DNA of 64,000 nucleotides from Thauera sp. (GCF_035444905.1 NZ_DAOMPS010000014.1:4439-68438); one strand, 5' to 3'. Shown: positions 15,109-35,817, counted from the first letter of the stretch. The notes: generated by a model from the sequence alone, not told the origin. Numbers and translations are program-made.

Positions 15109-15115
15109 GGACACC

Positions 15116-16285: not shown

Positions 16286-16298
16286 GGAAGGGGCCGCC

Positions 16299-17357: not shown

Positions 17358-18523
17358 AGATGCGGGAAGCTTCCAATCAAGCCTACATTGTCGATGCCCT
17401 GCGCAGCCCCACCGGCAAGCGCAAGGGCGGTCTGTCCCACGTGCATGCGATCGACCTCGGTGCGCATGTCCTCAAGGCGCTGGTCGAGCGCAACGCCATT
17501 CCCGCCGACGAGTACGACGACGTGATCTTCGGCTGCGTCGACACCATCGGCTCGCAGGCGGGCGACATCGCGCGCACCGCGTGGCTGGCCGCCGGCCTGC
17601 CGCTGAACGTGCCCGGCACCACGGTGGACCGTCAGTGCGGCTCCTCGCAGCAGGCGGTGCACTTCGCCGCCCAGGCGGTGATGAGCGGCACCCAGGACGT
17701 GGTGGCGGTCGGCGGCGTGCAGACCATGACGCAGATCCCGATCTCGTCGGCCATGCTCGCCGGGCAGCCGCTCGGCTTTCCCGACCCGTTCTCGGGCAGC
17801 AAGGGCTGGAAGGCGCGCTTCGGCGACCAGCCGGTGAACCAGTTCTATTCCGCGCAGCGCATCGCCGACCACTGGCAGTGCAGCCGCCGCGACATGGAGG
17901 TCTATGCGCTCGAGAGCCACCGCCGCGCGCTGGCAGCGATCGCCGAGGGTCGTTTCGAGCGCGAAATCGTCGGCCTGGAGGGCGTGACGAGGGACGAGAC
18001 GCCGCGCGTGTCCACGCTCGAGAAGATGGCCGAGTTGGAACCGGTCGGCCCCGAGTACCCGTCGATCACCGCCGCGGTGTCGAGCCAGACCTGCGACGCC
18101 TCCGCTGCGCTGCTGGTGGTGTCCGAGGCCGCGCTCAAGCGCTACAACCTGACCCCGCGCGCGCGCATCCACCACCTGTCGGTGATGGGCGACGACCCGA
18201 TCTGGCACCTCACCGCGCCGATCCCCGCCACCCGCGCCGCGCTCAAGAAGGCCGGCATGCGCATGAGCGACATCGACGTGGTCGAGATCAACGAGGCCTT
18301 CGCCTCGGTGGTCATGGCCTGGCAGAAGGAACTCGACTACGACCCCGCGCGCATGAACCCCAACGGCGGCGCCATCGCCCTGGGCCACCCGCTCGGCGCC
18401 ACCGGCGCCCGCCTGATGACCGCGCTGCTGCACGAGCTCGAGCGCAGTGGCGGCCGTTATGGCCTGCAGACCATGTGCGAAGGTGGCGGCCAGGCCAACG
18501 TGACCATCATTGAACGCTTGTAA
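17354..18523 (+). CDS. Thiolase (acetyl-CoA C-acyltransferase)
   Basis: Tail of track ORF 16628..18523. ATG 17354 overlaps the preceding stop. It has [28 protein letters not shown] and CEGGGQANV. Confidence 0.92.
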   Translation: MKMREASNQAYIVDALRSPTGKRKGGLSHVHAIDLGAHVLKALVERNAIPADEYDDVIFGCVDTIGSQAGDIARTAWLAAGLPLNVPGTTVDRQCGSSQQAVHFAAQAVMSGTQDVVAVGGVQTMTQIPISSAMLAGQPLGFPDPFSGSKGWKARFGDQPVNQFYSAQRIADHWQCSRRDMEVYALESHRRALAAIAEGRFEREIVGLEGVTRDETPRVSTLEKMAELEPVGPEYPSITAAVSSQTCDASAALLVVSEAALKRYNLTPRARIHHLSVMGDDPIWHLTAPIPATRAALKKAGMRMSDIDVVEINEAFASVVMAWQKELDYDPARMNPNGGAIALGHPLGATGARLMTALLHELERSGGRYGLQTMCEGGGQANVTIIERL

Positions 18524-18537
18524 GAGAAGGGATCGAC

Positions 18538-19413
18538 ATGGGTATTTGTGAAGGACGCACCGTCATCATCACCGGCGCCGGCGGCGGCCTGGGCCGCGCC
18601 TATGCGCTGGCCTTCGCGGCCGAGGGCGCCAACGTGGTGGTCAACGACATCCGCAAGGAAGCCGCCGACGCCGTCGTGGCCGAGATCACCGCGGCAGGCG
18701 GCAAGGCGATCGCCAACGCCGACGACATCACCCGCATCGACACCGCGCAGCAGATCGTCGACGCCGCCGTGGCGGCCTTCGGCGAGGTGCACGTCGTCGT
18801 CAACAACGCCGGCATCCTGCGCGACCGCATGTTCATCAGCCTGTCCGAGGACGACTGGGACCAGGTCATGCGGGTGCACCTGAAGGGCCACTTCTGCCTC
18901 GCCAACATCCTCGGGAAGCGCTGGCGCGACCAGGCCAAGGCCGGCAACAGGATCGCCGCGCGCATCATCAACACCAGCTCCGGCGCCGGCCTGCAGGGCT
19001 CGGTCGGGCAGTCCAACTATGCAGCGGCCAAGGGCGGCATCGCCGCGCTCACCCTGGTGCAGGCTGCCGAGCTGGCGCGCTACGGCGTCACCGCCAACGC
19101 GCTCGCCCCGGCCGCGCGCACCTCGATGACCGAGAGCGCGATGCCCGACGTGGTCAAGGCGCCCGAGAGCGGCTTCGACGCCTGGGCGGCGGAGAACGTG
19201 GCCCCGCTGGTGGTGTGGCTGGGCAGCGGACAGTCCTCGCACGTCACCGGCCAGGTGTTCGAGAGCCAGGGCGGTCGCATCTCGGTGTGCGACGGCTGGC
19301 GCACCGGTCCGCAGAAGGACAAGGGCGCGCGGCTGACGGTGCAGGAAGCCGGGGCCATGGTCGATGAACTGATGAAGCAGGCCGTGCCTGCGCAGAAGGT
19401 ATGGGGAACCTGA
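18538..19413 (+). CDS. SDR, MFE-2/Hsd4A-like hydroxyacyl-CoA dehydrogenase type
   Basis: It has ITGAGGGLGRAYA, NNAGILRD and YAAAKGGIAAL. Confidence 0.88.
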   Translation: MGICEGRTVIITGAGGGLGRAYALAFAAEGANVVVNDIRKEAADAVVAEITAAGGKAIANADDITRIDTAQQIVDAAVAAFGEVHVVVNNAGILRDRMFISLSEDDWDQVMRVHLKGHFCLANILGKRWRDQAKAGNRIAARIINTSSGAGLQGSVGQSNYAAAKGGIAALTLVQAAELARYGVTANALAPAARTSMTESAMPDVVKAPESGFDAWAAENVAPLVVWLGSGQSSHVTGQVFESQGGRISVCDGWRTGPQKDKGARLTVQEAGAMVDELMKQAVPAQKVWGT

Positions 19414-19414
19414 C

Positions 19415-21001
19415 ATGAGCGAGCAGGCGGTGGAGCAGGGGCGTCGTGATTTCCTGAAGGCGGGTGCAGCGCTCGGTGGCGCGGCGGCTGTGGGTCTGAG
19501 TGGGGCCAAAGCGGCTGGTGCTGCGGGTACGGCTGCGGCGGCCACGCCTGCGGCTCTGCCACTGCCCGAGTACGAGCAGTGGGACGCGACCGAGATCGCG
19601 CTGCGCATCCGCCGCGGCGACGTCAAGCCGAGCGAGGTGCTCGAGGCGGCGATCGCCCGCGCCGAGGCCTACGCGGCGATCAACGCGGTCACCGTGCCGC
19701 ACTTCGATCTCGCTCGCGAGGCTGCTCGCGCGCTCGACGCGGCCGGGCAGGCTGAGCGCGCGGCGCGCCCGGCCTTGTCCGGCGTGCCGTTCGCGCTCAA
19801 GGACCTCGGCATCGCCCTCAAGGGCACGGTCACCACCAACGGCTGCGCCTTCTTCCAGGACGCCGTCGCCGACCACGATTCCACCCTGGTGCAGCGCTAC
19901 CAGGCGGCGGGCCTCAACATCTTCGCCAAGCTCGCCTCGCCCGAGTTCGGCCAGACCGCCTCCACCGAATCGCGCCTGTTCGGCGCCACCCGCAACCCCT
20001 GGGATCTGGAGCGCAGCTCCGGCGGTTCCTCGGGCGGCGCCTCGGCGGCGGTGGCCGCGGGCGTGCTGCCGGCGGCGCATGCGAGCGACGGCGGCGGCTC
20101 GATCCGCATCCCGGCCTCGCACTGCGGCCTGTTCGGCCTCAAGCCCAGCCGCGGCCTCATCCCGATGGGCCCGAAGTCACTCGAAGGCTGGCTCGGCCTG
20201 TCCGCGCACAACGTGATCAGCCGCAGCGTGCGCGATACCGCGCTGCTGATGCAGCTCAGCCAGGGCGCCGAGCCCGGCGCGCGCACCCTGCCGCCCACCG
20301 CAGACCTGCTCGCGGCGCTCGAGCAGGCACCGCGCGGACTCAGGATCGGCCTGTTCCAGGCCAACCTGTTCGGCGCCGGCGTGCACGCGGAGTGCATCGA
20401 GGCGTCCAACAAGGCGGCCACGCTGTGCACCAGCCTCGGCCACCACGTCGAGCCGATCGACCTGTCGGCACTGCCCTTCCTCGAGATGGCGGGCAGCATG
20501 GGCGTCGTCACCGCCAGCGGCATGCTCTACACCGTACAGGCGCGCGAGAAGGCCATCGGCCGCGAGGCGCGCGAGGACGAGTTCGAGCCGATCGACTGGC
20601 AAAGCATGCAGAAGGCGAAGACCTACACCGCGCAGCAGGTCTTTGCCGCGCGCACGGTGTTCGATCGGGGTGGCCGCGTGTTCGATGAGCTGTTCTCGCG
20701 CTACGACCTGATCCTGTCGCCGACCACGGCCGCGCTGCCGCCCAAGCTCGGCGAGCTCTCGCTCGACCAGCCCTTCGAGAACTTCGCGCGCCGGGCGGTG
20801 CTGGCCTCGGCCTTCACCTCGATGTTCAACATGACCGGCCTGCCGGCGATGTCGGTGCCGCTGCACTGGAGCGCGGAAGGCCTGCCGATCGGCGTGCAGT
20901 TCGCCGCGCCCTATGGTGGCGAGGCGCGCCTGATCGCACTGGCCGCGCAGCTCGAGAAGGCCGCGCCGTGGGCAGACCGCCGGCCGCCGGCGCTGGCTTG
21001 A
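19415..21001 (+). CDS. Amidase-signature enzyme with twin-arginine (Tat) signal peptide
   Basis: The N-terminus has GRRDFLKAGAALGGAAAVG followed by an Ala-rich region. It also has the amidase signature GGSSGGASAAVAAG and SDGGGSIRIPA. Confidence 0.9.
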   Translation: MSEQAVEQGRRDFLKAGAALGGAAAVGLSGAKAAGAAGTAAAATPAALPLPEYEQWDATEIALRIRRGDVKPSEVLEAAIARAEAYAAINAVTVPHFDLAREAARALDAAGQAERAARPALSGVPFALKDLGIALKGTVTTNGCAFFQDAVADHDSTLVQRYQAAGLNIFAKLASPEFGQTASTESRLFGATRNPWDLERSSGGSSGGASAAVAAGVLPAAHASDGGGSIRIPASHCGLFGLKPSRGLIPMGPKSLEGWLGLSAHNVISRSVRDTALLMQLSQGAEPGARTLPPTADLLAALEQAPRGLRIGLFQANLFGAGVHAECIEASNKAATLCTSLGHHVEPIDLSALPFLEMAGSMGVVTASGMLYTVQAREKAIGREAREDEFEPIDWQSMQKAKTYTAQQVFAARTVFDRGGRVFDELFSRYDLILSPTTAALPPKLGELSLDQPFENFARRAVLASAFTSMFNMTGLPAMSVPLHWSAEGLPIGVQFAAPYGGEARLIALAAQLEKAAPWADRRPPALA

Positions 21002-21011
21002 TTGATCGCAG

Positions 21012-21302
21012 TCAGAGGTGGCGGCCGGTGTCCATGCGCTCATGCAGTACGCGCATCACAACGGTCACCCCCTGATCGATGCAGAAATAGACCCAGTGGT
21101 GTTCTACCCGCCAGCGCCGGTAGCCCTTGCGGATATGTTCGCAAGCCGGCGCGGAGAGGGGCTCCCGGGCAAACTGTTCGAAGGCTGCGTTGAGGAGATC
21201 GAGGTATCGCTCTGCCTGCGCAGCGCTCCATCGCCGCGCTGTGTAGCGCCAGATGTCTTCCAGATCTCGAACCGCGGCTGGCGAGAGTTGGAACTCAGCG
21301 AT
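21012..21302 (-). CDS. parE: ParE-family toxin reading frame with no canonical start codon (ATC at the expected ATG)
   Basis: Not in the ORF track. The reverse frame reads (I)AEFQLSPAAVRDLEDIWRYTARRWSAAQAERYLDLLNAAFEQFAREPLSAPACEHIRKGYRRWRVEHHWVYFCIDQGVTVVMRVLHERMDTGRHL-stop. An in-frame TGA lies 3 codons upstream of the ATC. The first ATG comes only 14 codons before the stop. Confidence 0.6.
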   Translation of the reverse strand: MAEFQLSPAAVRDLEDIWRYTARRWSAAQAERYLDLLNAAFEQFAREPLSAPACEHIRKGYRRWRVEHHWVYFCIDQGVTVVMRVLHERMDTGRHL

Positions 21303-21392
21303 GCTCGGCGTTCATGCGTGCTTTGAAGGCCTCAAGATCAAAGGGCTGTGCGGGTCCGCTGTTCTCGCCCTCGATCAGAGCAGCACGGATCG
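21255..21392. repeat. Direct repeat copy A (parE 5-prime end / parD 3-prime end), paired with 23299..23436
   Basis: By-eye ungapped alignment to 23299..23436 gives about 80% identity, for example ATCTCGAACCGC and TTCATGCGTGCTTTGAAGGC...TCCGCTGTTCTCGCCCTCG. Confidence 0.8.
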
Positions 21393-21540
21393 CTTCGGTT
21401 TGCGCCGTGCCCGCCTGCTCGCGACGAATCAGGTCGCGGATGTACTCGCTGTCGTTGGTGTAATGCCCCGCCTCGATCTGCGCTTTGATCCAGCGATCCT
21501 GCTGGTCGGTCAAGGTGATGGTCTTGCGTACGACGGACAT
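21295..21540 (-). CDS. parD: ParD-family (RHH/CopG) antitoxin
   Basis: 81 aa: MSVVRKTITLTDQQDRWIKAQIEAGHYTNDSEYIRDLIRREQ... It lies immediately upstream of the ParE frame and overlaps it. Confidence 0.88.
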   Translation of the reverse strand: MSVVRKTITLTDQQDRWIKAQIEAGHYTNDSEYIRDLIRREQAGTAQTEAIRAALIEGENSGPAQPFDLEAFKARMNAEHR

Positions 21541-21717
21541 GATGATCTCCTGGAGAAAGCGACTTTAATCATACTATCGGTGCAGAGCTTGTCTATATTG
21601 ATGTTGGGTTGCTTGTCACCACGGTGTACCCAAGTGGCGGACTCGACTATTCCGAGCTGGCGGCAGAGCAGGTTGGATATACTCGTTTTGTCGCGTATAT
21701 CTTATTGAGGTGCAACC

Positions 21718-21960
21718 ATGCATGTCGCCAAATGGGGCAATTCGCTCGCCGTCCGCCTGCCTGCGGCGGTGGTTCAGGCCCTGGATCTGAAGGAAGGGGA
21801 AGAGATCGAGCTGCATGTCGCTGGCGAGCGCTCTCTCGAGGTCGCGCGCAAGACGCCGCCACAGGAACTGGTGGCCCGCCTGCGCCGCCTTCGTGGCAGG
21901 CTTCCTGCGGACTTCCGCTTCGACCGCCTCGAGGCCAACGATGCCGACCGCGAGCGCTGA
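21718..21960 (+). CDS. vapB: AbrB/SpoVT-family antitoxin (VapB-type)
   Basis: MHVAKWGNSLAVRLPAAVVQALDLKEGEEIEL. Its end overlaps the PIN gene by 20 nt. Confidence 0.85.
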   Translation: MHVAKWGNSLAVRLPAAVVQALDLKEGEEIELHVAGERSLEVARKTPPQELVARLRRLRGRLPADFRFDRLEANDADRER

Positions 21961-22363
21961 ACCAACCCGCCGGGTATTTCTCGACACCAACGTTGTGCTC
22001 TACCTGCTGTCCGCCGACGAGCGCAAGGCGAACATGGCCGAAGCGCTGCTGGCACAGGGTGGCCTGGTCAGCGTGCAGGTACTGACCGAGGCCGCGTCGG
22101 TCTGCCTGCGCAAGCTCAACCTGCCCTGGCCCGAGGTCCGCGAACTGCTCGACGCAGTGAAAGCCTGCTGCGAGGTGCTCCCGCTCACGCTTCCCGTCCA
22201 TGAACGCGCGCTGTATCTCGCGGAGCGGTATCGGCTATCGCTTTACGACGCGCTGATCTGCGCGGCGGCTCAGAGCGCCGGTGCCGAAGTGCTTTACACC
22301 GAGGACTTGCAGGACGGTCTGGTGCTCGATGGCCTGACCGTCCGCAATCCTTGCAATGGTTGA
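21941..22363 (+). CDS. vapC: PIN-domain toxin (VapC-type)
   Basis: Track ORF 21815..22363 trimmed to ATG 21941. It has VFLDTNVVLY, YDALICAAA and YTEDLQ acidic residues in PIN spacing. Confidence 0.87.
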   Translation: MPTASAEPTRRVFLDTNVVLYLLSADERKANMAEALLAQGGLVSVQVLTEAASVCLRKLNLPWPEVRELLDAVKACCEVLPLTLPVHERALYLAERYRLSLYDALICAAAQSAGAEVLYTEDLQDGLVLDGLTVRNPCNG

Positions 22364-22536
22364 TGCCCTGTTGCCTGATTCTTTGCGGAGACCTTCCTGG
22401 CTCTGCGCGGGCGGATCGCCTATTCGGCAGTCTGCTCATCGAAGCGGATGATGTGGGCCTGGCTGGGCCTCTCCGCGGATGACAAACCGAAGCAGCGGCG
22501 TTGAAGTGGAGCAATCAGTGCACTACACTCCGATGC

Positions 22537-22764
22537 ATGCCGATCCTGCAACGCTTCAACGACGTACGTGTTCTGATGTACCTGAGCGACCATCCCCCGC
22601 CCCATGTGCACGTGAAGCTGCGTGACGGCAGGGAGTGCACCGTTGATATCGACGACGGCGTAATCAAGGGCCGGGTGTCCGAACGCGAAATACGTGAAGC
22701 GCTGGCCTGGATCGAAACGAACCGGGATTTCCTGTTCGACGAATGGCGGAGGAACAACCCGTGA
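22537..22764 (+). CDS. DUF4160-family small protein
   Basis: Track ORF 22501 (TTG) trimmed to ATG 22537. It has the hallmark LSDHPPPHVHV. Confidence 0.8.
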   Translation: MPILQRFNDVRVLMYLSDHPPPHVHVKLRDGRECTVDIDDGVIKGRVSEREIREALAWIETNRDFLFDEWRRNNP

Positions 22765-23255
22765 GCGATTACTTTTTCCCGAAGCTGACAGCCGTTGTGG
22801 CGCTGGCACCCTACCGCCTGCGCACCACCTGGAGCACGGGTGAAGTGCTGGAGGTCGATGTGGGCGAAATCCTGCGCGAGGTCCCAGCGCTCGCACCCAT
22901 CCTCGAACCCGAGGTGTTTGCGCGTGCGCATATCGCCGAGTGGGGCGGCGGCATCGAGTGGTTCGATACCGAGTTTGGCGAGGACAACGTCTATGCGTGG
23001 GCCAAGGAGCAGGCCGGTGAAGTCAGTCATGAAATGTTCGGCGACTGGATGCACCGTAACGATCTGTCGCTGACCACGGCGGCCGAGGCGCTCGGCATCA
23101 GCCGCCGCATGGTGAGCTACTACCGCACCGCGCACAAAGCCATTCCGCGTTCCATCTGGCTGGCCTGCCTCGGTTGGGAAGTCACTCGACCGACGACGAA
23201 GACACTGCCGCGTACCTTGCCGACGGTACGCGAGTACGCTGCCGCGCGTGCTTGA
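22761..23255 (+). CDS. DUF2442-like protein with C-terminal HTH extension
   Basis: GTG 22761 has GGAGG 8 nt upstream and forms a GTGA overlap with the DUF4160 stop. ATG 22743 is the alternative start. The C-terminal part LSLTTAAEALGISRRMVSYYRTAHKAIP looks like an XRE-type HTH. Confidence 0.72.
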   Translation: MSDYFFPKLTAVVALAPYRLRTTWSTGEVLEVDVGEILREVPALAPILEPEVFARAHIAEWGGGIEWFDTEFGEDNVYAWAKEQAGEVSHEMFGDWMHRNDLSLTTAAEALGISRRMVSYYRTAHKAIPRSIWLACLGWEVTRPTTKTLPRTLPTVREYAAARA

Positions 23256-23295
23256 GCCTGAAGGCCTCATCGCCTGATCTGGACGCGAACGGTGG

Positions 23296-23340
23296 TCAGT
23301 CTTCGATATCTCGAACCGCTGCTGGAGAGCGTTCAAACTC
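23296..23340 (-). pseudogene. Truncated parE remnant (14 codons)
   Basis: The reverse frame EFERSPAAVRDIED-stop aligns to the N-terminus of the ParE frame at 21302 (EFQLSPAAVRDLED). It lies just downstream of the hsdS-parD fusion stop. Confidence 0.55.
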
Positions 23341-23436
23341 AGTCGTGCTCCGCCTTCATGCGTGCTTTGAAGGCTGCCAGGTCAAAGGGCTGCTGCGGTC
23401 CGCTGTTCTCGCCCTCGCGCAGCGCAGCGCCGATCG
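23299..23436. repeat. Direct repeat copy B, paired with 21255..21392
   Basis: See copy A. It covers the parE stump and the last roughly 32 codons of the hsdS ORF. Confidence 0.8.
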
Positions 23437-25108
23437 GGGTCGTCACTTCGGCGATCAGGGCCTCAGCCAGATGCGCCTGCTTGGTCTGGGCTGCGGTGAG
23501 GCGGGCCTTGAGGCTGGCGGTCATTGCCTGCAGCTTTTCGACCTGGGCGACGATGCGGGATTGTTCGGCGAGCGGGGGAAGCGCAAAGCGATATGAGAAG
23601 AGCTTCTCTGACTCCAGTTTGCACGTCCCATGCGTTGATCGATCGACCAATGCCAGGATGTCGGACTTGAAACCCCGCATTGCCAAAGCGAGATAGCTGC
23701 TTAGCGATTCCGCATAGGGCGTGAGCGATTTCATGTCCTGATTGATGGTTACCTCCGTCTGCGTAACGCCAACAGGAAACGAGTGCGCAAGAATCATCCC
23801 GCGTACAACGACCAATATGCTGTTTGGTGGAACCAGCGGAAGGCGCGTTTCCTCTAGCGCAGCAGGCGACACGTGGTCAATCGCATCGGCGATCAGGGCA
23901 ACCTTCATGTCCTTTGGACTCACCCACGGAATCGAACCGTCCCAGTAGCGACCTATGTTCTTGCTGGGTGTTGAACCCCCGCCGATCTGGCATAGCTCCG
24001 GAATCGTGACCCACACCCATCCCTCCGGCAGCTCATAGGGCTTTTCGTCGTCGCTGACCGGCAGCAATTGCTTGTCGCGCTTGATCCTCCCTTCCTTGAT
24101 CAGTCGGTCCTTCTCGGCGCGGATCTTCTTGAGCAGCTCGCTGGCGGGCTCGTCGTTCGGGTCTTGCGGGACGAGTTTGCCGCGCACGGCGAGCTGGAGC
24201 AGGGTGGCGTCGAGGCGGTCGATGGATTCGGGCGTGGTGAAAAGGGTGTCGAAATGCGCGGCGAGGTGCTGCCAGTGGCGGCGGAATTCGTCGGCGTCGG
24301 CGGATTCGGCGAGTTGGTCGAGCGCGGCCTCGACCCAGTGCCCCTGCACCCGCGCGGCGTGGCCTTGCTCGGCTTCGAGCCGGTCGCACAGGGCCATGAG
24401 TTCCTCGACCTTGGCGACGATGCGGGATTGTTCGGCAAGTGGGGGGAGAGGCGCGAGCGTCTTCTCCATGCTGTCCTTCGTCATGTGCAACATGGAGACG
24501 CCATGCCCGCCAGCTTTCAGCTCTTGCGTTCTCTCATGCAAGAACGTGTAGAGATACTGCTTGTTCAGGTCTGCCGGACTGTGAAGGTTCAGCTTCCAGA
24601 TGTGGTAGTGGTAAATCGCTTTCGGACCAGACCAGATGAAGGGGCCGAACGAGGCAGACCAGGCGAACAGCAGATCACCCTCCTCGCAATATTTGTCGTC
24701 TTCAAGTGTCAGGTCGGAGTAGTACCAATGGGATGACGTAAACAAATTCCCCACGCGGAGAACGGGGGTGCCAGCTTCGAGTAGTTCGTGCTGTTTGTAG
24801 GCTCGTCCATTCAGCACGGTAACGAGGTCGGCAAGGCGCACCCACTCCCAACCCACGGGGAGTTGGTAGGGTTTTTCATCCTCAAAAATGTCGGGTAGCG
24901 GCTTGTTCCGCTTGATCCTCCCTTCCTTGATCAGCCGATCTTTCTCCGCACGAATCCGCTTCAGCAGCTCGCCCGCCGGCTCGTCGTTTGGGTCCTGCGG
25001 CATCAGGCTGCCACGCACGGCGAGGCTCAGGATCAGTTCGCGCAGCCTGGCGACACCGCCCGCGCTGGTGGCGAGCAGGTCGAAGTTCTCCAGCAGCGCT
25101 GCGCTCAT
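23339..25108 (-). CDS. hsdS: Type I restriction-modification specificity subunit HsdS, with C-terminal tail derived from ParD
   Basis: Track ORF 23339..25873 trimmed to ATG 25108, which forms an ATGA overlap with the hsdM stop. There are two target-recognition domains separated by repeated conserved regions (LPPLAEQSRIVAKVEEL / LPPLAEQSRIVAQVEKL). The tail AALREGENSGPQQPFDLAAFKARMKAEHD matches the ParD C-terminus AALIEGENSGPAQPFDLEAFKARMNAEHR. Confidence 0.9.
   Translation of the reverse strand: MSAALLENFDLLATSAGGVARLRELILSLAVRGSLMPQDPNDEPAGELLKRIRAEKDRLIKEGRIKRNKPLPDIFEDEKPYQLPVGWEWVRLADLVTVLNGRAYKQHELLEAGTPVLRVGNLFTSSHWYYSDLTLEDDKYCEEGDLLFAWSASFGPFIWSGPKAIYHYHIWKLNLHSPADLNKQYLYTFLHERTQELKAGGHGVSMLHMTKDSMEKTLAPLPPLAEQSRIVAKVEELMALCDRLEAEQGHAARVQGHWVEAALDQLAESADADEFRRHWQHLAAHFDTLFTTPESIDRLDATLLQLAVRGKLVPQDPNDEPASELLKKIRAEKDRLIKEGRIKRDKQLLPVSDDEKPYELPEGWVWVTIPELCQIGGGSTPSKNIGRYWDGSIPWVSPKDMKVALIADAIDHVSPAALEETRLPLVPPNSILVVVRGMILAHSFPVGVTQTEVTINQDMKSLTPYAESLSSYLALAMRGFKSDILALVDRSTHGTCKLESEKLFSYRFALPPLAEQSRIVAQVEKLQAMTASLKARLTAAQTKQAHLAEALIAEVTTPIGAALREGENSGPQQPFDLAAFKARMKAEHD
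24078..24200. repeat. hsdS internal repeat, copy 1 (pairs with 24908..25030)
   Basis: CGCTTGATCCTCCCTTCCTTGATCAG...CTCGTCGTTCGGGTC recurs at 24908 with roughly 75-80% identity by eye. It encodes RGxLxPQDPNDEPAxELLKxIRAEKDRLIKEGRIKR. Confidence 0.75.
24908..25030. repeat. hsdS internal repeat, copy 2
   Basis: See 24078..24200. Confidence 0.75.
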
Positions 25109-26574
25109 GCCTGCCCCTCGAGCGCGGCGGCGAGGATGGCCTTGAGTTCGTCGCGCGTGGTCTGGATCTGGGCCTGCAGCGCGGTGTACTGCGCAAGCAG
25201 TTCCTGCGGGTCGTGGCTGTCTTCCTCGGGGTGGTGCGGGTTCTTGATGTCGAGGTTGAAGTTGCGCGCGCGCAGCTCGTCGATGCTGACCTTCCAGGCG
25301 AACTCGGTCTCGACGCGGGCGGCGAAGCCATCTTCTTCCGTGCCCCACCAGGCTTTCTCGGCAGCGAATTCCTCGATGCGGATGGGCTTGGTCTTGGAGT
25401 AGCTCTTGTAGCCGGCGGGGTAGGGGTGCTCGTAGTACCAGACGTGCTCGGTGGGCCGGCCCTTGGTGAAGAACAGCAGGTTGGTCTTGATGCCGGTGTA
25501 GGGCGCGAACACGCCGTTGGGCAGGCGCACGATGGTGTGCAGGTTGCACTCGGTGAGCAGGCGCTCCTTGATGCGGGTCTTCACGCCTTCGCCGAACAAG
25601 GTACCGTCGGGCAGCACCACCGCCGCGCGGCCGCCGTCCTTGAGCAGGTGCATGATCAGCACCAGGAAGAGGTCGGCGGTTTCCTTGGTGCGGATGTCGG
25701 CGGGGAAGTTGGCCTCGATGCCGGGTTCCTCGGTGCCACCGAAGGGCGGGTTGGTGAGGATGACGTCGACGCGGTCGGCCGGGCGGTAGTCGCGCAGCGG
25801 GCGCGACAGGGTGTTGTCGTGGCGGATCTGGCTGGGCACTTCGATGCCGTGCAGTAGCATGTTGGTGACGCACAGCAGGTGCGGGAGCTGCTTCTTCTCG
25901 ACGCCCGACACCGCGCGTTGCCAGGTGTGGCGATCCTCGACCGTGCGGATCTGGTCGCGCAGGTGCTCGAGCGTGCAGGCGAGGAAGCCGCCGGTGCCGC
26001 AGGCGGGGTCGAGCATGCGCTCGCCGAGTCGGGGATTGACCTGGTCGACCATGAACTGGGTGACCGCGCGCGGGGTGTAGAACTCGCCCGCGTTGCCAGC
26101 GCTCTGCAGGTCCTTGAGGATCTTTTCGTAGAGGTCGTTGAAGAGGTGGCGCTCGGCCTGGTCGTTGAAGTCGATCTCGTTGATCTTGTTGATGACCTGG
26201 CGCAGCAGCTGGCCGGACTTCATGTAGTTGTAGGCGTCCTCGAACACCGACTGCACGACGTAGCCGCGCGGGTTGCGCGCGGGGTCGGCGGCGAGGCCTT
26301 TCATGCCGGGGAAGAGTTCGGTGTTGATGAAATCCTGCAGATCGTCGCCGGTGATGCCTTCGGCGTCCGCCGCCCAGTTGCGCCAGCGCAGCGGCTCGGG
26401 GATGGGCGAGCGGTAGCGGTCGTGCATCAGCTCGAGCTCGGTCTCCTGGTCGTCGAAGATCTTGAGGAAGAGCAGCCAGCTGAGCTGCGACAGGCGTTGG
26501 GCGTCGCCGTCGACGCCGGCGTCTTGCCGCATGATGTCCTGGATGGATTTGATGAGGGTGGTGCTGATTGCCAT
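25105..26574 (-). CDS. hsdM: Type I restriction-modification N6-adenine methyltransferase subunit HsdM
   Basis: 489 aa with an HsdM_N-like start, the SAM motif DPACGTGGFL and the catalytic NPPFGG. Confidence 0.95.
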   Translation of the reverse strand: MAISTTLIKSIQDIMRQDAGVDGDAQRLSQLSWLLFLKIFDDQETELELMHDRYRSPIPEPLRWRNWAADAEGITGDDLQDFINTELFPGMKGLAADPARNPRGYVVQSVFEDAYNYMKSGQLLRQVINKINEIDFNDQAERHLFNDLYEKILKDLQSAGNAGEFYTPRAVTQFMVDQVNPRLGERMLDPACGTGGFLACTLEHLRDQIRTVEDRHTWQRAVSGVEKKQLPHLLCVTNMLLHGIEVPSQIRHDNTLSRPLRDYRPADRVDVILTNPPFGGTEEPGIEANFPADIRTKETADLFLVLIMHLLKDGGRAAVVLPDGTLFGEGVKTRIKERLLTECNLHTIVRLPNGVFAPYTGIKTNLLFFTKGRPTEHVWYYEHPYPAGYKSYSKTKPIRIEEFAAEKAWWGTEEDGFAARVETEFAWKVSIDELRARNFNLDIKNPHHPEEDSHDPQELLAQYTALQAQIQTTRDELKAILAAALEGQA

Positions 26575-26620
26575 GGTGCCTTTGGTTGCTTGAGGTGCTG
26601 CGGCGGGTCGTCCGCGTCCT

Positions 26621-26651
26621 TTGCCGGCGATTTTGCCGGTTTTCTTGCCGG
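26621..26651. repeat. Three TTGCCGG heptamers at 12-bp phase
   Basis: TTGCCGG at 26621, 26633 and 26645, in the hsdR-hsdM spacer just upstream of the hsdM start. Confidence 0.7.
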
Positions 26652-26721
26652 CTACGTCACTTCCGGAAGCCTTGTCCGTACTGGGATGCCGGCACGATCT
26701 GACGTCTGAACTCCCGATTTC

Positions 26722-26752
26722 TTGCCGGTTGTTCTGCCGGTTAGTTTGCCGG
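26722..26752. repeat. Three (T/C)TGCCGG heptamers at 12-bp phase
   Basis: TTGCCGG at 26722, CTGCCGG at 26734 and TTGCCGG at 26746. The last copy lies inside the final codons of hsdR. Confidence 0.7.
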
Positions 26753-29086
26753 CTGCTGGTACAGCCCGCGCTCTAGCTCGCGGATGGCGCCGAGGTAAGC
26801 GGGCTTGCCGCCGAAGGCCTTGATGATCTGGGAGACGGAGCCGAGCGCATCGAAGGGCTGGAGCTGCAGCACTTCCATGCTTTCCACCTCGGTGATGCCG
26901 GCGTCGGCGTACTTGTCGAGCAGCAGCTCCAGCACCTTGCGCGCGGTGCCTTCGTAGCGGGTGAAGTAATCGCGCTTGCGGACGTTGTCGGCGCGCTCGC
27001 GGCGGGTGAGTGGCTTGCGGCCGAAGGCGATGTGGCAGACGAGGTCGAAGGGGTCGAGCGCCTTGCCGGTCTCCTTGGCAAGCTCCTCGAAGAGGATGCC
27101 CTGGTTTTCCAGTTCGGCGATGACGGCAGCCTTGCGGTCGGCGTCGTTCCAGGTCTTGAGGAAATCGTCGAGCGAGGCGAAGCGCTTGCCGATCTGGATG
27201 CGGGTGTAGTCGCGCAGCGATTCGGTGATGAGGCGGCCGTCGGTGCCGTAGTACTGCACGCGCTCGTTCACCACATAGACCGGCACGTCCTTGATGACGT
27301 ACTTGATGCGTTCGCCGCCAGTCGTGGGAGCTTCGGGAAGCTCGCCGGGCTGGCCCCGAGTCTCCTGGTCCGGTGGCGGCGGGTCCTCCGGCGGCACAAC
27401 GGGCTCATCGCCACTCGGGTTGTAGATGACCGCCGGCTCGCCATCGAAGGCCGGGTCGGCAAACAGTTCGGTCGCGCGCTTGAAGTCGAGGATGGAGAAC
27501 CAGAGCTTGCCGTACTCCTCGTCGATGCGGGTGCCGCGGCCGATGATCTGCTTGAACTCGGTCATCGAGTTGATGGTGCGATCGAGCACGACGAGCTTGC
27601 AGGTCTTGGCGTCGACGCCGGTGGTCATGAGCCGGCTGGTGGTGGCGATGACCGGGTACGGCTTTTCGGGGTCGATGAAGTTGTCGAGCTCGAGCTTGCC
27701 CTCGAGGTTGTCGCCGGTGATCTGCATCACGTACTTGGGGTTGCGGCTGGCGAGGTCGGCGTTGGCGTTGATCAGCGCCTGGCGCATGCGCGCGGCGTGG
27801 TCGATGTCCTCGCAGAACACGACGGTCTTGGCCATGCGGTCCGTGCCGCGGAGGAATTCGCTGATGCGCCGGGCGACGGCCTCGTCGCGCTGGGTGAGCA
27901 CCAGCGTGCGGTTCATGTCGCCCTGGTTGTAGATGCGGTCCTCGACGAGCTGGCCCCTGGAATCGAGCTTGCCGGCCTGCGGTCGCCAGCCGAGGTCCTT
28001 GTCGAGATCGACGCGGATGACCTTGTAGGGGGCGAGAAAGCCGTCCTCGATGCCCTGCTTGAGCGAGTAGGTGTAGACCGGCTCGCCGAAGTAGCTGATG
28101 TTGGAGACCTCTTCGGTTTCCTTGGGCGTGGCGGTGAGCCCGAGATGCACGGCGCCGCTGAAGTAGTCGAGCACCGCGCGCCAGGCGGAGTCCTCGGCCG
28201 CGCTGCCGCGGTGGCATTCGTCGATGACGACGAGGTCGAAGAAATCCGGGCTGAACTGGCGGTAGATGTTCTTCTCTTCCTCGCTGCCGGTGACGGCCTG
28301 ATAGAGCGAGAGGTAGATCTCGTAGGACTTGTCGATCGAGCGGTTCTCGATCTTGGTCATCGCGCCGCCGAAGGGCTTGAAGTCGTTGCTCTTGGTCTGG
28401 TCGACGAGGATGTTGCGGTCGGCGAGGAAGAGGATGCGGCTGTTGGGGTGCGACTTCCAGAACCGCCAGATGATCTGGAAGGCGGTGTACGTCTTGCCGG
28501 TGCCGGTCGCCATGACGAGCAGGACGCGGTCCTGCCCCTTGGCGATGGCCTCGATGGCGCGGTTGACCGCTGTCGTCTGGTAGTAGCGCGGCTGCTTGCC
28601 GGTGTTGTGGTAGTCCTGCGCGTAGACCGGGGCGATATCGGCGCCGATGCCTTTCCAGGCCAGATAGCGCTGCCACAGCACCTCGGGAGACGGGAAGTCG
28701 CTCAGCGCGATCTCGGTTTCGAGGGCGCCATCGGTGCGCGTCCTGTCGTGGAAGACGAAGCCGTCACCGTTGCTGGAGAAGGCGAAGGGCACGTCGAGCA
28801 TCGTCGCGTAGTCCAGCGCCTGCTGGATGCCGTCGCGCATCGAGTGGTTGTTGTCCTTGGCTTCAACGACGGCGAGCGGCAGACCCGGCTTGTAGTAGAG
28901 GACGTAGTCCGCGCGCCGGATGCTGTTCTTGTCGCGCCTCCCGGTCTGCCCGCGCACAACGACGCGGCCGTCGGTGAGCCGGACTTCCTCGCGCACCTGC
29001 AGCTCGGTGTTCCACTGCGCCGCAGCGATCGCCGGGGTGATGTACTGGGTGCAGATGTCGCGTTCGGACAGCGTCTTCTTGGTCAT
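26741..29086 (-). CDS. hsdR: Type I restriction endonuclease subunit HsdR
   Basis: Track ORF 26741..29137 trimmed to ATG 29086 ([20 protein letters not shown]). It has an N-terminal nuclease region (ADYVLYY...VVEAKD), Walker A MATGTGKT and a DEAH-type VIDECHRGS. Confidence 0.93.
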
Positions 29087-29205
29087 GAGCCCGGAATGAT
29101 CTGGCGTTGAGCTTGGCGGGGATGATGACAGCAACAAGCGCGCAGAGGCAAAGGTGACGGGGGCGTTGCAGGGATGGCGGGTGTAACCCGCCTTCGTTCG
29201 TCCGC

Positions 29206-30501
29206 TTACTGCGGGGACGCGGGGCTGTCGCCCTCGCGCGAGGCGGGTGCGCTCAGCTTGCGGAGCGTCAGCGCGCAGCGTTGTTCGATCAAGGCGACGA
29301 TTCTTTCAACGACGCCGTTCCCGGCAAAACCATTCGCGCGGTCGGACTGGAGCGCACGCGCGGCGCGGGGCAGCGAGTTCGTCAGTTCCAGGATGCGCCG
29401 CCGCGCCTGTGCCTTGGCAAGACCGGCGCCCTCGGCGAACTGGTCCCAGTGCCGGGCCTCGACTTCGCTGAACTTGTACTTGCTGCCGATCTTCATCGCC
29501 ATCTTGGGCGTCAAGGTCGGATAGACGGCGGTGGAGAGCGCGTCGTAGAGCGGGGCCAGGACCGGTGCCCTGCCGGAGTAGAGCAGGGAGAAGTTCTTGG
29601 CGTGCGCGTCGTGATTGCCGATGAGCGCGTTGAAGATGACGTAATCGAACAGGCGCAGCACCTGTGGCGCGCTCGGGCGCGTCGCACGGCGTACCAGATC
29701 GAAGCATTGCGCCAGATCCGGCCCGCCCTCGTTCTGGTACTTCATCTCGGGCACCACGCCGAGTGCCTGGCAGAAGTCTTCCTGGTGGAGGCGTCGCCGG
29801 CGCCCCTGTGGATCCAGCACACGGTCGTAGCGTTCGACCAGCAGGAAGGGGCGATGCAATACGGCATGGACGCTCGCCTTCGCCGGCTCGAGCTGCAGGG
29901 CCTCTGCCAGCGCCATGCAGAATCCTTCGTTGACCACGCTGTCCTCGACGGCGGGGATGGCCGGTTTGAGGATGTGCGAGCTCGGGCTACCGTTGAGGGG
30001 GAGGCCGAGGCGAGTGCCGTCGAAGACCACCGGCAGCTTGTCCTGGGCGCCCGCCAGCGAGAGCCGCAAGCCGTCCTTGCCCGCCAGCATCGGGCGACGA
30101 GGCAGCTCGTCCAGTACGGCGACGACTTCCTCCTCACTCAGCCATTGAACGTCGTCGGCCTGCGCGGGCGCCGGGAGACTCTGCCCGGGTGCCAGGAAGG
30201 TCACGGCGCCGGCACATTCGCCGCCGATGTGGTCGAGCAGGGCGAAGTCGTTCTGGCCCGAGACCTGGAACTGCCGCGCGATCAGGCGACGCATCTGTCC
30301 TTCCGGCAGCAGGCCGGCAAAGAAGGGGCGCGTCGCACGATCGTCGAACGGCTCGGCCCGCAGGGGCAGCGAGTGCGACAGGGCGACAGCGGTTGACCGC
30401 GACAGCCAGCCGGGGGCGTAGCAAAAGCCGAGGCGCCCATCGACCAGCGCGAGCGTGCCGACGTGGTCGGAGAACAGCCAGACCTCCAGCTCATGCGTCA
30501 T
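29206..30501 (-). CDS. hipA: HipA-family serine/threonine kinase toxin
   Basis: 431 aa with [11 protein letters not shown], the catalytic loop [13 protein letters not shown] and LAPLYDALS. It overlaps the hipB stop by 11 nt. Confidence 0.92.
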
Positions 30502-30751
30502 GGCCGCTGCCCTCGGTGGCGTGATCGGCTTCTAATGCGGGCAAACCGTCCAATTGGAGCTCTCCCCCCAGCGCATCGATCACCCGCAGGACGTTCTCCA
30601 GCCTTACGGTCGGCTTGCCCGCTTCGAGGTCGACGATGAAGCGCACGCCCACGCCCGCGGCCAGCGCCAGCTGAGGCTGGGTCAGGCCGAGTTGCTTGCG
30701 GGCGGCACGCAGGGCGTCGCCGAGTTGCTGGGGGGAGCGGATGGATGTCAT
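30491..30751 (-). CDS. hipB: HipB-type XRE-family HTH antitoxin
   Basis: 86 aa: LGDALRAARKQLGLTQPQLALAAGVGVRFIVDLEAGKPTVRL. Confidence 0.88.
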   Translation of the reverse strand: MTSIRSPQQLGDALRAARKQLGLTQPQLALAAGVGVRFIVDLEAGKPTVRLENVLRVIDALGGELQLDGLPALEADHATEGSGHDA

Positions 30752-30763
30752 GGCTTTCCTCGG

Positions 30764-30781
30764 ATTTCCCGTTCGGGAAAT
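30764..30781. promoter_or_regulatory. hipBA operator-like palindrome 1
   Basis: ATTTCCCGttCGGGAAAT, 13 bp upstream of the hipB start. Confidence 0.6.
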
Positions 30782-30814
30782 TATGGACTGGGCTTCTGCT
30801 TTGCGCCAGCGATA

Positions 30815-30830
30815 TTTCCCGATCGGGAAA
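30815..30830. promoter_or_regulatory. hipBA operator-like palindrome 2
   Basis: TTTCCCGATCGGGAAA, a perfect 16-bp palindrome. Its centre is 50 bp from palindrome 1. Confidence 0.6.
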
Positions 30831-30863
30831 CATAGGCTCAGAGAGCCGCATCAGGAGGGAGAG

Positions 30864-30880
30864 ATTTACCGATCGGGAAT
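30864..30880. promoter_or_regulatory. hipBA operator-like palindrome 3
   Basis: ATTTACCGATCGGGAAT. Its centre is 50 bp from palindrome 2. Confidence 0.55.
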
Positions 30881-30897
30881 CCGCCACTGCTGTGGCC

Positions 30898-30913
30898 CCG
30901 TCCGTTTTGACGA
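30898..30913. promoter_or_regulatory. Degenerate copy of recurring palindrome (CCGTC-N6-GACGA)
   Basis: CCGTCcgttttGACGA lies 28 bp upstream of ATG 30941, or 61 bp upstream of the alternative GTG 30974. TATAAA follows at about 30935. Confidence 0.3.
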
Positions 30914-30940
30914 TGCCGGGCTAGCCCGACCCCCCTATAA

Positions 30941-31759
30941 ATGACGGCGTATCCACCCTTCGAGGTTCACGCCGTGAGAGAAGCGCCTTCCTATGTCCCC
31001 GGTCACCAGCTGCTCGCTGGCAAGTCCGTCCTGATCACCGCCGCCGCCGGAGCCGGCATCGGCTTTGCCGCCGCGCGCAAGTGCGCCGAAGAAGGCTGCC
31101 GCGCGCTGATGATCTCCGACATCCATCCGCGCCGCCTGGAAGAGGCGGTCGCCAAGCTCAAGGCCGACACCGGGCTGCAGCACGTCTGGGGCCAGCTGTG
31201 CAACGTCACCAATGAAGAAGGGGTGCAGGCCCTGGTCGCCGCGGCCGAGGACAAGCTCGGCGGCGTCGACGTGCTGATCAACAACGCCGGCCTGGGTGGC
31301 GAGAAGCGCGTCACCGAGATGACGGATGACGAGTGGAGCCGGGTGCTCGACATCACGCTCACCGGCACCTTCCGCATGACGCGCGCGATGCTCCCGCACA
31401 TGGAAAAGCGCGGTCGCGGCGCGATTGTGAACAACGCCTCGGTGCTGGGCTGGCGCGCGCAGAAGGGCCAGGCCCACTACGCCGCCGCCAAGGCCGGCGT
31501 GATGGCGCTGACGCGCTGCTCGGCGGTCGAGGCGGCCGAGCACGGCGTGCGCATCAACGCGGTGTCGCCGTCGATCGCGCTGCACGAGTTCCTGAAGAAG
31601 GCCTCGAGCGAGGAGCTGCTCGCCCAACTCGCCAGCCGCGAGGCCTTCGGCCGTGCCGCCGAGGTGTGGGAAGTGGCCAACGTGATGGTCTTCCTCGCCA
31701 GCGACTACGCCTCGTACATGACGGGCGAAGTGCTCTCCGTCAGCTCGCAGCACGCTTGA
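30941..31759 (+). CDS. Short-chain dehydrogenase/reductase (SDR)
   Basis: It has ITAAAGAGIGFAAA, NNAGLGG and YAAAKAGVMAL. In-frame GTG 30974 is a possible alternative start. Confidence 0.87.
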   Translation: MTAYPPFEVHAVREAPSYVPGHQLLAGKSVLITAAAGAGIGFAAARKCAEEGCRALMISDIHPRRLEEAVAKLKADTGLQHVWGQLCNVTNEEGVQALVAAAEDKLGGVDVLINNAGLGGEKRVTEMTDDEWSRVLDITLTGTFRMTRAMLPHMEKRGRGAIVNNASVLGWRAQKGQAHYAAAKAGVMALTRCSAVEAAEHGVRINAVSPSIALHEFLKKASSEELLAQLASREAFGRAAEVWEVANVMVFLASDYASYMTGEVLSVSSQHA

Positions 31760-31769
31760 GGGCGCGGCG

Positions 31770-32231
31770 ATGACCATGGTTTTCTCCAGCGCCGAGCAGC
31801 TGGTCGCGGCCGAGGGCCAGGACCTGGGCACGACCGACTGGGTCGCGCTCGACCAGGACCGCATCAACCAGTTTGCGGATGCCACCGACGACCACCAGTG
31901 GATCCACGTCGACCCTGTGCGCGCCAAGGACGGCCCGTTCGGCGCCTGCATCGCGCACGGCTACCTGACGCTGGCGCTCGCCAGCCTGTTCCTGCCGCAG
32001 CTGATCCGCGCCGACAAGCTGAAGATGGGCGTGAACGTCGGCTGCGACCGCGTGCGCTTTCCGGCGCCGGTCAAGGCCGGCGCGCGCATCCGCGGCCGCG
32101 GCGAGATCCTCAAGGTCGAGCGCGTTAAGGACGCGGTGCAATCCACCGTGCGCGTGACCATCGAGATCGAGGGCAGCGAGCGCCCGGGCTGCGTGGTCGA
32201 CACCATCAGCCGCTACACCTTCAACGATTGA
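31770..32231 (+). CDS. MaoC-like (R)-specific enoyl-CoA hydratase (hot-dog fold)
   Basis: It has [25 protein letters not shown] and [14 protein letters not shown]. Confidence 0.88.
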
Positions 32232-32253
32232 ATTCCCGAGAGAGAGCATCGCC

Positions 32254-33456
32254 ATGACCGAAGCCGTCATCGTTTCCACCGCCCGTACCGCGCTCACCAA
32301 GTCCTTCCGCGGCTCCTTCAACGATACCGAGGCGCCGGTGCTGGGCGGCCATGTGGTGCGCGCCGTCGTCGAGCGTGCCGGCATCGAGCCCGCCGCGGTC
32401 GAGGACGTGATCATGGGCGCCGCCGTGCAGCAGGGCACCCAGGCCTACAACATCGGCCGCCTGTGCGCCTACACCGGCGGCCTGCCGGACACCGTGCCGG
32501 GCATGGCGCTCGACCGCATGTGCGCCTCGGGTCTGATGACGATTGGTGTCGCCGCCAAGAACATCCTGGCCGGCGAGATGAAGATCGCGGTGGCCGGCGG
32601 CGTCGAGTCGCTGTCGCTGACCCAGACTAAGCACAAGAACACCTACCGCGCGCAGTCCGAGGCGGTGAAGGCGATCGTGCCCGCGGCCTACATCCCGATG
32701 CTGGAGACGGCCGAGATCGTGTCGGCGCGCTACGGCATCTCGCGTGCGGCGCAAGACGAATTCTCGCTGCAGAGCCAGCAGCGCACTGCCGCCGCTCAGG
32801 CCGCCGGCCTGTTCGACGCCGAGATCGTGCCGCTGGCGGCGCGCAAGATCGTGTTCGACAAGGAAGGCAAGCCCGCCGGCTTTGAAGACGTGATCGCCAC
32901 CCGCGACGAGTGCAACCGCGCCTCGACCACGCTGGCGGATCTCGCCAAGCTGAATCCGGTGGTCAAGGACGGCCAGTGGGTGAAGCAGGGCGAATTCGTC
33001 ACCGCCGGCAACGCCTCGCAGCTGTCGGATGGCGCCTCGGCTGCGCTGCTGATGAGCCGCGACGAGGCCGAGCGCCGTGGCATCGCGCCGCTGGGCGTGT
33101 ATCGCGGCATCGCGGTGGCCGGCTGCGCGCCGGAGGAGATGGGTATCGGCCCGGTGTTCGCCATCCCCAAGCTGCTCGAGCGCTTCAACCTCAAGGTCAG
33201 CGACATCGGCCTGTGGGAGATCAACGAGGCCTTCGCCTGCCAGGTGCTGTACAGCCGCGACAAGCTCGGCATCCCCAACGACCGCCTCAACGTCAACGGC
33301 GGCGCGATCGCCATCGGCCACCCCTTCGGCATGTCGGGCGCGCGTATGGTCGGCCACGCGCTGCTCGAGGGTCGTCGCCGGGGCGTGCGCTACGTGGTGG
33401 TGTCGATGTGCATCGGCGGCGGCATGGGCGCGGCGGGCCTGTTCGAGGTGCTGTGA
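32254..33456 (+). CDS. Thiolase (acetyl-CoA C-acyltransferase)
   Basis: It has [27 protein letters not shown] and [10 protein letters not shown]. Confidence 0.92.
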
Positions 33457-34580: not shown

Positions 34581-34598
34581 CAGGACCGACAAGGACCG

Positions 34599-35762: not shown

Positions 35763-35817
35763 GCCGGCCGCGCCGGGCGGCGCTCGCGCTGCCCGGCCTT
35801 TCCATGGAGGTGAGGGG

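Follow-up and report, generated by a model that had tools for sequence, protein, structure and literature searches.

Type I restriction-modification systems of the EcoAI family methylate host DNA and cut unmethylated incoming DNA, and the hipBA toxin-antitoxin operon of Escherichia coli is preceded by four operators of the form TATCC-N8-GGATA. Another toxin-antitoxin family, DhiTA, was named in Dickeya dadantii 3937, where the first gene is toxic both in Dickeya and in E. coli, the second gene neutralises it, and the DhiTA complex represses its own promoter (PMC8198452). The same pair of domains, DUF4160 and DUF2442, makes up a "persistence-enhancing module" that boosts the persistence of a Thermus plasmid (PMC12724237), and DUF4160 is also found as an effector domain in Menshen systems (PMC12065111). 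Relatives of the EcoAI, HipBA and DhiTA systems lie together in the DNA analysed here, a 64-kb stretch from Thauera sp. (NZ_DAOMPS010000014.1:4439-68438; hereafter the window, to whose first letter all positions refer unless another locus is named), within a 9.9-kb block (20997-30890) that holds parDE, vapBC, a DUF4160/DUF2442 pair, a remnant of a second parDE, hsdS-hsdM-hsdR and hipBA (Table 1). In all, the block comprises a type I restriction system, four toxin-antitoxin pairs and one further pair that is dead, and it separates two operons of a catabolic cluster. All its modules fall into known families, and none represents a new kind of system. We consider it probable (roughly 0.7) that the block is an old, now immobile and slowly eroding patch of independent selfish or defence modules.

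The content of the block was determined by frame-specific GC analysis and Pfam scans, in which all gene domain calls scored above the curated cut-offs. Every gene named in an initial annotation of this DNA was found where that annotation had placed it, and the borders it had proposed, 21002 and 30890, agree almost to the base with the breaks in synteny relative to Thauera mechernichensis TL1. Its view that the block lacks an integrase and contains neither catabolic nor mobility genes was also borne out: 11 genes fill the coding space, all of which could be assigned, so that no integrase, recombinase or transposase gene is present in the block, and the largest non-coding gap (189 nt) leaves no room for one. 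There is no catabolic gene in 20997-30890, no tRNA gene in the whole window, and no direct or inverted repeat of at least 8 nt at the two borders of the block. An Rfam scan of the block returned one sub-threshold match (COG3860 RNA, E = 0.1, inside vapC), which we took to be due to chance. All five addiction or defence modules that had been counted in the block are present, but the toxin gene of parDE lacks a canonical start codon.

Composition sets the block apart from its surroundings. The window as a whole has a Thauera-like GC content of about 69%, and the GC content is 69.7% and 70.0% in the two flanks versus 63.7% in the block, with a sharp jump at both borders. The regions that had been described as less GC-rich are so, namely the spacer between parD and vapB (21541-21717; 48.6%) and the target-recognition regions of hsdS (55-56%). 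At third codon positions, GC (GC3) is 0.72-0.79 in the toxin-antitoxin genes and hsdS, 0.85 in hipA, and 0.92-0.93 in hsdM and hsdR, the last value being host-like (host genes, about 0.92).

The age of the block was judged from the same site in relatives. The comparative sample is small: a search with the amidase gene that borders the block on the left yielded one close genome and two close metagenome loci, L086, which ends within the amidase, and L088. The closest genome is that of T. mechernichensis TL1 (92% amino-acid identity in the amidase), one contig of which aligns collinearly with the window at 93% identity as far as 20996 and resumes this alignment at 30891. T. mechernichensis lacks the block, which is therefore not conserved at this position throughout the genus, and the GC content of the block is well below that of its flanks. 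The empty site that the initial annotation had proposed to compare does not exist here, because T. mechernichensis carries 5.9 kb of alternative content (L001 11571-17511), comprising genes for two short-chain dehydrogenases/reductases (SDRs), a SnoaL-like protein, a rubredoxin-like protein, a cytochrome P450, a DUF1254/DUF1214 protein and a divergently oriented TetR. As the window lineage is without this P450 and TetR, the regulation of the cluster and its substrate range may differ between the two species.

Both relatives carry scars of the block. Although hipBA is absent from the site in T. mechernichensis, two of the palindromes that precede it in the window have been kept there, with spacers that can be aligned to those of the window. 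In L088, a metagenome contig from a third lineage (amidase 88% identical), the amidase is followed by an internally deleted copy, a pseudogene, of the second SDR of the T. mechernichensis segment, and then by about 60 nt of parD (whose ending is an 18/18 match), a stretch of the parD-vapB spacer (19/19 identical), a single palindrome and the promoter region of the SDR gene. This contig is 1478 nt long at a coverage of about 3.8x, and its positions 1430-1478 are Illumina adapter (AGATCGGAAGAGC...). Because two sister lineages carry its scars, the island is older than the split between lineages whose DNA now differs by 7-13%, and it is not a recent arrival. The simplest reading would be an ancestor that carried the catabolic segment and the island in tandem, followed by differing deletions in the three lineages. 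A foreign-looking, integrase-less block does interrupt the catabolic cluster, as had been proposed, but the scars in two sister lineages speak against a recent insertion into an intact cluster.

The block is also widespread in sludge populations. Contigs of one activated-sludge metagenome (X1) match the window without a difference, and contigs crossing the junctions were found both there and in runs of other studies dated 2016 to 2024, on the left (X4, 20944-21755; X6, 20884-21555; X2, 20950-21346) and on the right (X13, 28989-30962; X4, 30241-31392; X1, 29188-33324). Across independent metagenomes the identity of the block is 95-100%, and the junction-crossing contigs show that it is fixed in a widespread sludge population. 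Four runs (X2, X3, X4 and X6) additionally contain several low-identity contigs that match only the end of the amidase (about 47 nt; 20950-21001) and then continue into 4-5 different sequences; these may come from paralogous amidases in other taxa or represent additional variants of the site.

These results bear on the alternative that a mobile defence island was acquired recently, replaced the P450/TetR segment and then lost its integrase. The block combines deviant composition (both its GC content and the GC3 of its toxin-antitoxin genes) with absence from close relatives, the closest genome carrying other genes at the site, as would be expected of such an island, and its modules resemble plasmid-borne copies; the absence is secondary, however, given that the relatives retain two palindromes in one case and scraps of parD, spacer and palindrome in the other. 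The host-like GC3 of hsdM and hsdR, the fixation of the block in many metagenomes over the years covered, and the lack of an integrase, a tRNA gene and a flanking repeat are likewise at odds with recent mobility. A search of the whole block against plasmids gave matches module by module only, at about 78% identity and on different plasmids, never as a block. We therefore regard recent acquisition as unlikely.

Erosion of the block is evident from the dead second parDE, from a parE gene without a start codon and from the loss of the block in sister lineages. In the first parDE module, parD precedes parE and overlaps it by 8 nt. The AT-rich region (21541-21717) between the divergently oriented parDE and vapBC modules contains a promoter-like site. 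The codon at the start position of parE (21300-21302) is ATC; the frame opens after a TGA stop, and no ATG, GTG or TTG occurs in it before codon 78. Plasmid homologues of ParE found by tblastn were at most 50% identical, too distant to decide the start codon, which was decided by metagenome contigs: ATC is kept in block-bearing contigs from four runs, but the parDE relatives found in these metagenomes carry ATG or TTG at that codon. Judging from this substitution, the ParE toxin is probably attenuated, silenced or dead after start-codon loss, and low-level initiation at ATC is possible. The "parE stump" reported earlier is real, being part of a 138-nt remnant of a second parDE (23299-23436) that is 82% identical to 21255-21392. 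Its parD end is now read as part of hsdS: the HsdS profile stops at residue 555 of 589, and the last 32 residues are the C-terminus of the dead ParD read in frame, a fusion that is kept in contigs of X3, X4 and X6. Campbell-type integration via the 138-nt repeat was considered and rejected, as the right-hand copy joins neither the remaining parE nor the remaining parD.

The restriction system retains complete genes. HsdR matched the NCBIfam model NF046051 (EcoAI/FtnUII) with 1169.7 bits (cut-off, 550) over model positions 1-768 of 768, and HsdR, HsdM and HsdS were all recognised by PADLOC, so that the system can be assigned to the EcoAI/FtnUII family (type IB), with all three subunits predicted to be full length. 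An exact-protein look-up of HsdM returned no record. In four other runs the read depth over both recognition domains of hsdS falls to about zero while the framework of the gene stays covered, and contigs diverge into other sequences at the borders of these domains. Such a pattern is characteristic of classical type I specificity-domain swapping, which would change specificity within the population, and it suggests ongoing selection on specificity; for methylation and restriction activity as such, the swapping provides indirect support at most. The population also varies between hsdM and hsdR, where a 158-nt piece bearing heptamer repeats is replaced by 19 nt (GGGGTCTGTTTCTGATTCT) in three runs, X4, X6 and X13 (joint 26576->26735); the piece could be a small insertion or a protein-binding array.

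It might be argued from the missing parE start codon, the reduction of the second parDE to 138 nt, the fusion of hsdS to a parD tail, and the loss of the block by sister lineages without obvious harm that the block is merely a graveyard of decaying, non-functional toxin-antitoxin and restriction-modification genes with no present role. However, every remaining frame has its full length and complete coverage of its model, and the motifs of VapC, HipA, HsdM and HsdR are intact. In particular, vapBC, whose genes overlap by 20 nt and whose toxin has the expected acidic residues (D15, E50, D103 and E121/D122 in a motif check), and hipBA, in which hipB comes first and overlaps hipA by 11 nt, look canonical and intact. 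The high identity of the block across independent metagenomes, the domain swapping in hsdS and the strong family-wide purifying selection on the DUF4160/DUF2442 pair described below also tell against general decay, which we hold to be quite improbable. Finally, the sharp shift in composition at both borders could reflect an assembly or binning artefact that fused foreign DNA to the catabolic cluster; the contigs that cross the junctions on both sides, drawn from independent runs and studies, effectively refute this explanation.

The DUF4160/DUF2442 pair had been described as uncharacterised. This label needs correcting: the pair belongs to the DhiTA type II family, for which there are the toxicity and neutralisation data from D. 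dadantii (PMC8198452), an NCBIfam model and the structure PDB 2AUW. The toxin gene comes first and overlaps the antitoxin gene by 4 nt. The DUF4160 protein scored 40 bits against the NCBIfam model toxin_DhiT (NF048015), below the equivalog cut-off of 100, which points to a distant branch of the DhiT family and no equivalog. The 164-aa antitoxin is 87-89% identical to NE0471 of Nitrosomonas europaea, the protein of structure 2AUW, recorded as a "putative DNA binding protein", whose C-terminal domain is a helix-turn-helix (HTH) domain structurally close to Aca1, Aca2 and HigA (PMC9410881). Weak Pfam HTH matches in the DUF2442 protein and the HTH-type tail of the Foldseek list concur; the AlphaFold model of this protein was poor (predicted local distance difference test score, 61) and was used only to recover 2AUW and the HTH-type matches.

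The long form of the antitoxin has 983 homologues, the top 120 of which are 75-95% identical. At the three loci with an upstream gene called (L081-L083), a 75-aa DUF4160 gene precedes the long antitoxin gene with a 4-nt overlap, and the pair is a conserved two-gene cassette that occurs in unrelated contexts, often near other toxin-antitoxin pairs or transposases. When the pair in the window was compared with two other copies, synonymous divergence (dS) was 0.8-1.5 and nonsynonymous divergence (dN) 0.14-0.15, and therefore long-standing purifying selection, not recent transfer, accounts for the similarity. Alignment of four unrelated loci revealed a common promoter-like element of TTGAAG-like and TACACT-like boxes separated by 17 nt, with a GCAAnnn(T/G)TGC palindrome in the spacer and a -10 box that ends 7 nt before the ATG; the equivalent element with its palindrome lies at 22501-22539 in the window and at about 5740-5780 in L081-L083. 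The palindrome is a putative operator, suggesting autoregulation and a nearly leaderless mRNA. In the literature searched, we found no experimental test of the long-antitoxin (NE0470/NE0471-type) branch. Because this branch shows 75-95% amino-acid identity in many unrelated sludge and freshwater proteobacteria despite saturated synonymous sites, and because its nearly leaderless promoter/operator is conserved, one may speculate that it is more than a plain addiction module, for instance a phage-triggered abortive-infection switch, an example prompted by the DUF4160 effector domain of Menshen systems; the block might also anchor the neighbouring catabolic genes and slow their loss. We consider this proposal doubtful. 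A cluster in Serpentinimonas (L084 1554-7290; AP014569.1) is another patch rich in toxin-antitoxin genes: it contains one DUF4160/DUF2442 pair, a further DUF2442 gene that is not preceded by a called DUF4160 gene, two pairs of the RelB/YafQ(ParE) type and a single YhaV/PrlF pair.

A search for the palindrome TT(C/A)CCG(A/T)TCGGGAA gave 7 matches versus 1.06 expected by chance, and 6 of the 7 were the three sites upstream of hipBA in the window, each matched on both strands. The same three palindromes, with the same spacing, lie upstream of hipBA on the Acidovorax carolinensis plasmid pACP3.2. Because they are shared with the plasmid operon despite unrelated spacers, the palindromes appear to belong to the hipBA module, and most simply they would be putative HipB operators. 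Since two of them lie beside tetR in T. mechernichensis, we also considered operators of a lost TetR; this was rejected in view of the three sites upstream of hipBA on pACP3.2.

Table 1. Features of the block and its junctions (window positions)
Feature	Position	Strand	Evidence or remark
Left junction	20997-21011		T. mechernichensis homology stops just before amidase stop codon (20999-21001); parE stop codon 21012-21014; blastn and alignment
parE, toxin gene, 96 codons	21012-21302	-	Pfam ParE_toxin PF05016, 68.1 bits (cut-off 23)
parD, antitoxin gene, ribbon-helix-helix type	21295-21540	-	Pfam ParD_antitoxin PF03693, 55.7 bits (cut-off 21); TIGR02606, 64.7 bits (cut-off 46.2)
Promoter-like site for parDE: TAGACA, 16 nt, TATGAT	21568-21595	-	Consensus match only
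vapB, antitoxin gene, AbrB/MazE/SpoVT fold	21718-21960	+	Pfam MazE_antitoxin PF04014, 55.7 bits
vapC, PIN-domain toxin gene	21941-22363	+	Pfam PIN PF01850, 58.5 bits
Putative promoter of DUF4160/DUF2442 operon: TTGAAG, 17 nt, TACACT	22501-22529	+	Alignment of four unrelated loci; function inferred
DUF4160 gene, DhiT-like toxin, 75 aa	22537-22764	+	Pfam DUF4160 PF13711, 61.3 bits
DUF2442 gene with C-terminal HTH, DhiA-like antitoxin, 164 aa, GTG start	22761-23255	+	Pfam DUF2442 PF10387, 31.5 bits
Second parE, stump: first 15-16 codons, then stop	23296-23346	-	Translation; repeat
Second parD, last 32 codons, fused in frame to hsdS 3' end	23339-23436	-	Translation; end of PADLOC HsdS profile
hsdS, specificity subunit gene, 589 aa	23339-25108	-	Pfam Methylase_S, two stretches; PADLOC Specificity_I, E = 1e-156; two internal repeats
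hsdS target-recognition domains	~23626-24051, ~24478-24903	-	Near-zero depth in other metagenomes
hsdM, N6-adenine methyltransferase gene, NPPF at residue 275	25105-26574	-	Pfam N6_Mtase, 253 bits, and HsdM_N; PADLOC MTase_I
158-nt piece between hsdM and hsdR, six TTGCCGG-like heptamers in two groups of three	26577-26734		Sequence and pattern search
hsdR, restriction subunit gene, 781 aa, GTGKT and DECH motifs	26741-29086	-	Pfam ResIII and EcoEI_R_C; NCBIfam NF046051
hipA, kinase toxin gene, 431 aa, catalytic loop HDAHAKN at residue 297	29206-30501	-	Pfam HipA_C, 176.6 bits; Couple_hipA, 90 bits
hipB, HTH antitoxin gene	30491-30751	-	Pfam HTH_3, HTH_31
Three 14-bp palindromes, TT(C/A)CCG(A/T)TCGGGAA, 50-nt spacing	30766, 30816, 30866 (region 30766-30879)		Pattern search
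Right junction	30880-30893		High-identity T. mechernichensis synteny restarts at 30891

Taken as an old patch of independent modules, the block may have formed as follows. In a lineage of sludge Thauera, the modules would have built up in the space separating two operons of a steroid-type catabolic cluster, and the block would already have been present in the common ancestor of the window lineage, T. mechernichensis and the third, metagenomic lineage, probably beside the P450/TetR catabolic segment. Later deletions would have removed it from the two other lineages, with scars left behind, and it would have been retained and vertically inherited in the window lineage. Gene content, borders, composition, scars, variation within the population and the state of the parE start codon were established directly; the activities of the modules, their autoregulation and any stabilising or phage-defence effect are ascribed here from knowledge of their families. 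The type IB system would cut unmethylated incoming DNA, its specificity shifting through domain swaps in hsdS; VapBC would pair a PIN ribonuclease toxin with an AbrB-type antitoxin; the DUF2442-HTH antitoxin, with its Xre-like DNA-binding domain, probably represses its own nearly leaderless promoter; HipA would act as a kinase toxin, with the repressor HipB acting on the three palindromic operators; and ParDE is probably attenuated or dead, the end of the second parD now apparently serving as the C-terminal tail of HsdS. As to the role in phage defence that the initial annotation had proposed, a comparison with PADLOC-DB recognised the type I system as the only defence system; HipA gave a weak match to the candidate PDC-M03A and no toxin-antitoxin module was matched, so that phage defence by the toxin-antitoxin pairs is an assumption, although stabilising or abortive-infection roles are plausible from what is generally known of such pairs.

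Several points weigh against this interpretation. The lower GC and GC3 of the toxin-antitoxin genes would also suit a more recent acquisition, and the order of events is ambiguous between a tandem ancestor with deletions and a replacement. The evidence from scars comes from one isolate genome and one short, low-coverage, adapter-ended contig (L088), and the two palindromes of T. mechernichensis adjoin tetR and could in principle be TetR operators. In addition, restriction-modification could be impaired by the 32 ParD-derived residues at the end of HsdS and by the 158-nt insertion that lies upstream of hsdM.

The block is flanked on the left by an SDR gene and a gene for an amidase with a Tat signal (19415-21001), and on the right by genes for an SDR, a MaoC hydratase, a thiolase and an acyl-CoA dehydrogenase. 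Over their full extent (2832-20998 and 30941-38448), the flanks encode an AMP-ligase, an Ltp-type thiolase, a BphC/HsaC-like extradiol dioxygenase, a CoA-transferase, two enoyl-CoA hydratases, an NMO-type oxidoreductase, several acyl-CoA dehydrogenases, SDRs, a MaoC hydratase, a thiolase and an alpha/beta hydrolase. From this gene content, the flanks look like a cluster for aerobic degradation of steroid-type rings and side chains. That the block splits the catabolic cluster had been recognised correctly, the cluster being of a beta-oxidation or steroid type. Elsewhere in the window, a radical-SAM/SPASM-domain protein is encoded on the minus strand at 40121-41398, downstream of the catabolic genes. 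Lowered GC (0.62-0.64 versus about 0.69) also occurs at 8001-9000 and at 51840-54868, where two genes of 460 and 537 aa have lower GC at first codon positions as well as lower GC3; both regions may be foreign.

The locus provides an example of a catabolic cluster that bears an old selfish or defence patch, which one lineage has kept and its relatives have lost through deletions that left scars. It can help with annotation and with the interpretation of pangenome variation among wastewater Thauera. New here are the ATC codon of parE, the ParD tail on hsdS, the hipB-type palindromes shared with an Acidovorax plasmid, the scars in sister lineages and the domain swaps in hsdS, and the current understanding of toxin-antitoxin or restriction systems is unchanged. 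The most interesting lead is the very widespread and strongly conserved long-antitoxin branch of DhiTA, whose antitoxin structure is solved and which would be a convenient candidate for finding the target of DUF4160 toxins.

Compared with described systems, the block resembles chromosomal defence islands and hot spots in the clustering of restriction-modification with toxin-antitoxin genes, in its deviant composition and in a content that varies between close relatives. It differs from them in having no integrase, recombinase, tRNA gene or att-like repeats and only one system recognised by PADLOC, and in that the alternative content of the site is catabolic, with no other defence genes. The restriction system shares with EcoAI/FtnUII systems the full-length HsdR match, the EcoEI_R_C domain, an HsdS of about 590 aa with two recognition domains and internal repeats, and the contiguous arrangement of hsdS, hsdM and hsdR on one strand; the ParD-derived tail of HsdS and the repeat-bearing insertion between hsdR and hsdM set it apart. 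Like other ParDE and VapBC modules, parDE and vapBC comprise the canonical domain pairs encoded by overlapping genes with the antitoxin gene first, parDE being distinguished by ATC in place of the parE start codon and by the survival of the second copy only as a remnant. The hipBA module is of the E. coli type with a long HipA, having the N-terminal coupling and kinase domains, hipB first with an overlap, and several palindromic putative operators, but these are three TTCCCG(A/T)TCGGGAA sites 50 nt apart, unlike the sites preceding hipBA in E. coli. The DUF4160/DUF2442 pair shares with DhiTA and the Thermus module the same two Pfam domains, the toxin gene in first place and an overlap of a few nucleotides, and its antitoxin closely matches NE0471; this antitoxin, at 164 aa, carries an added Xre-like HTH domain, whereas that of Thermus has 92 aa.

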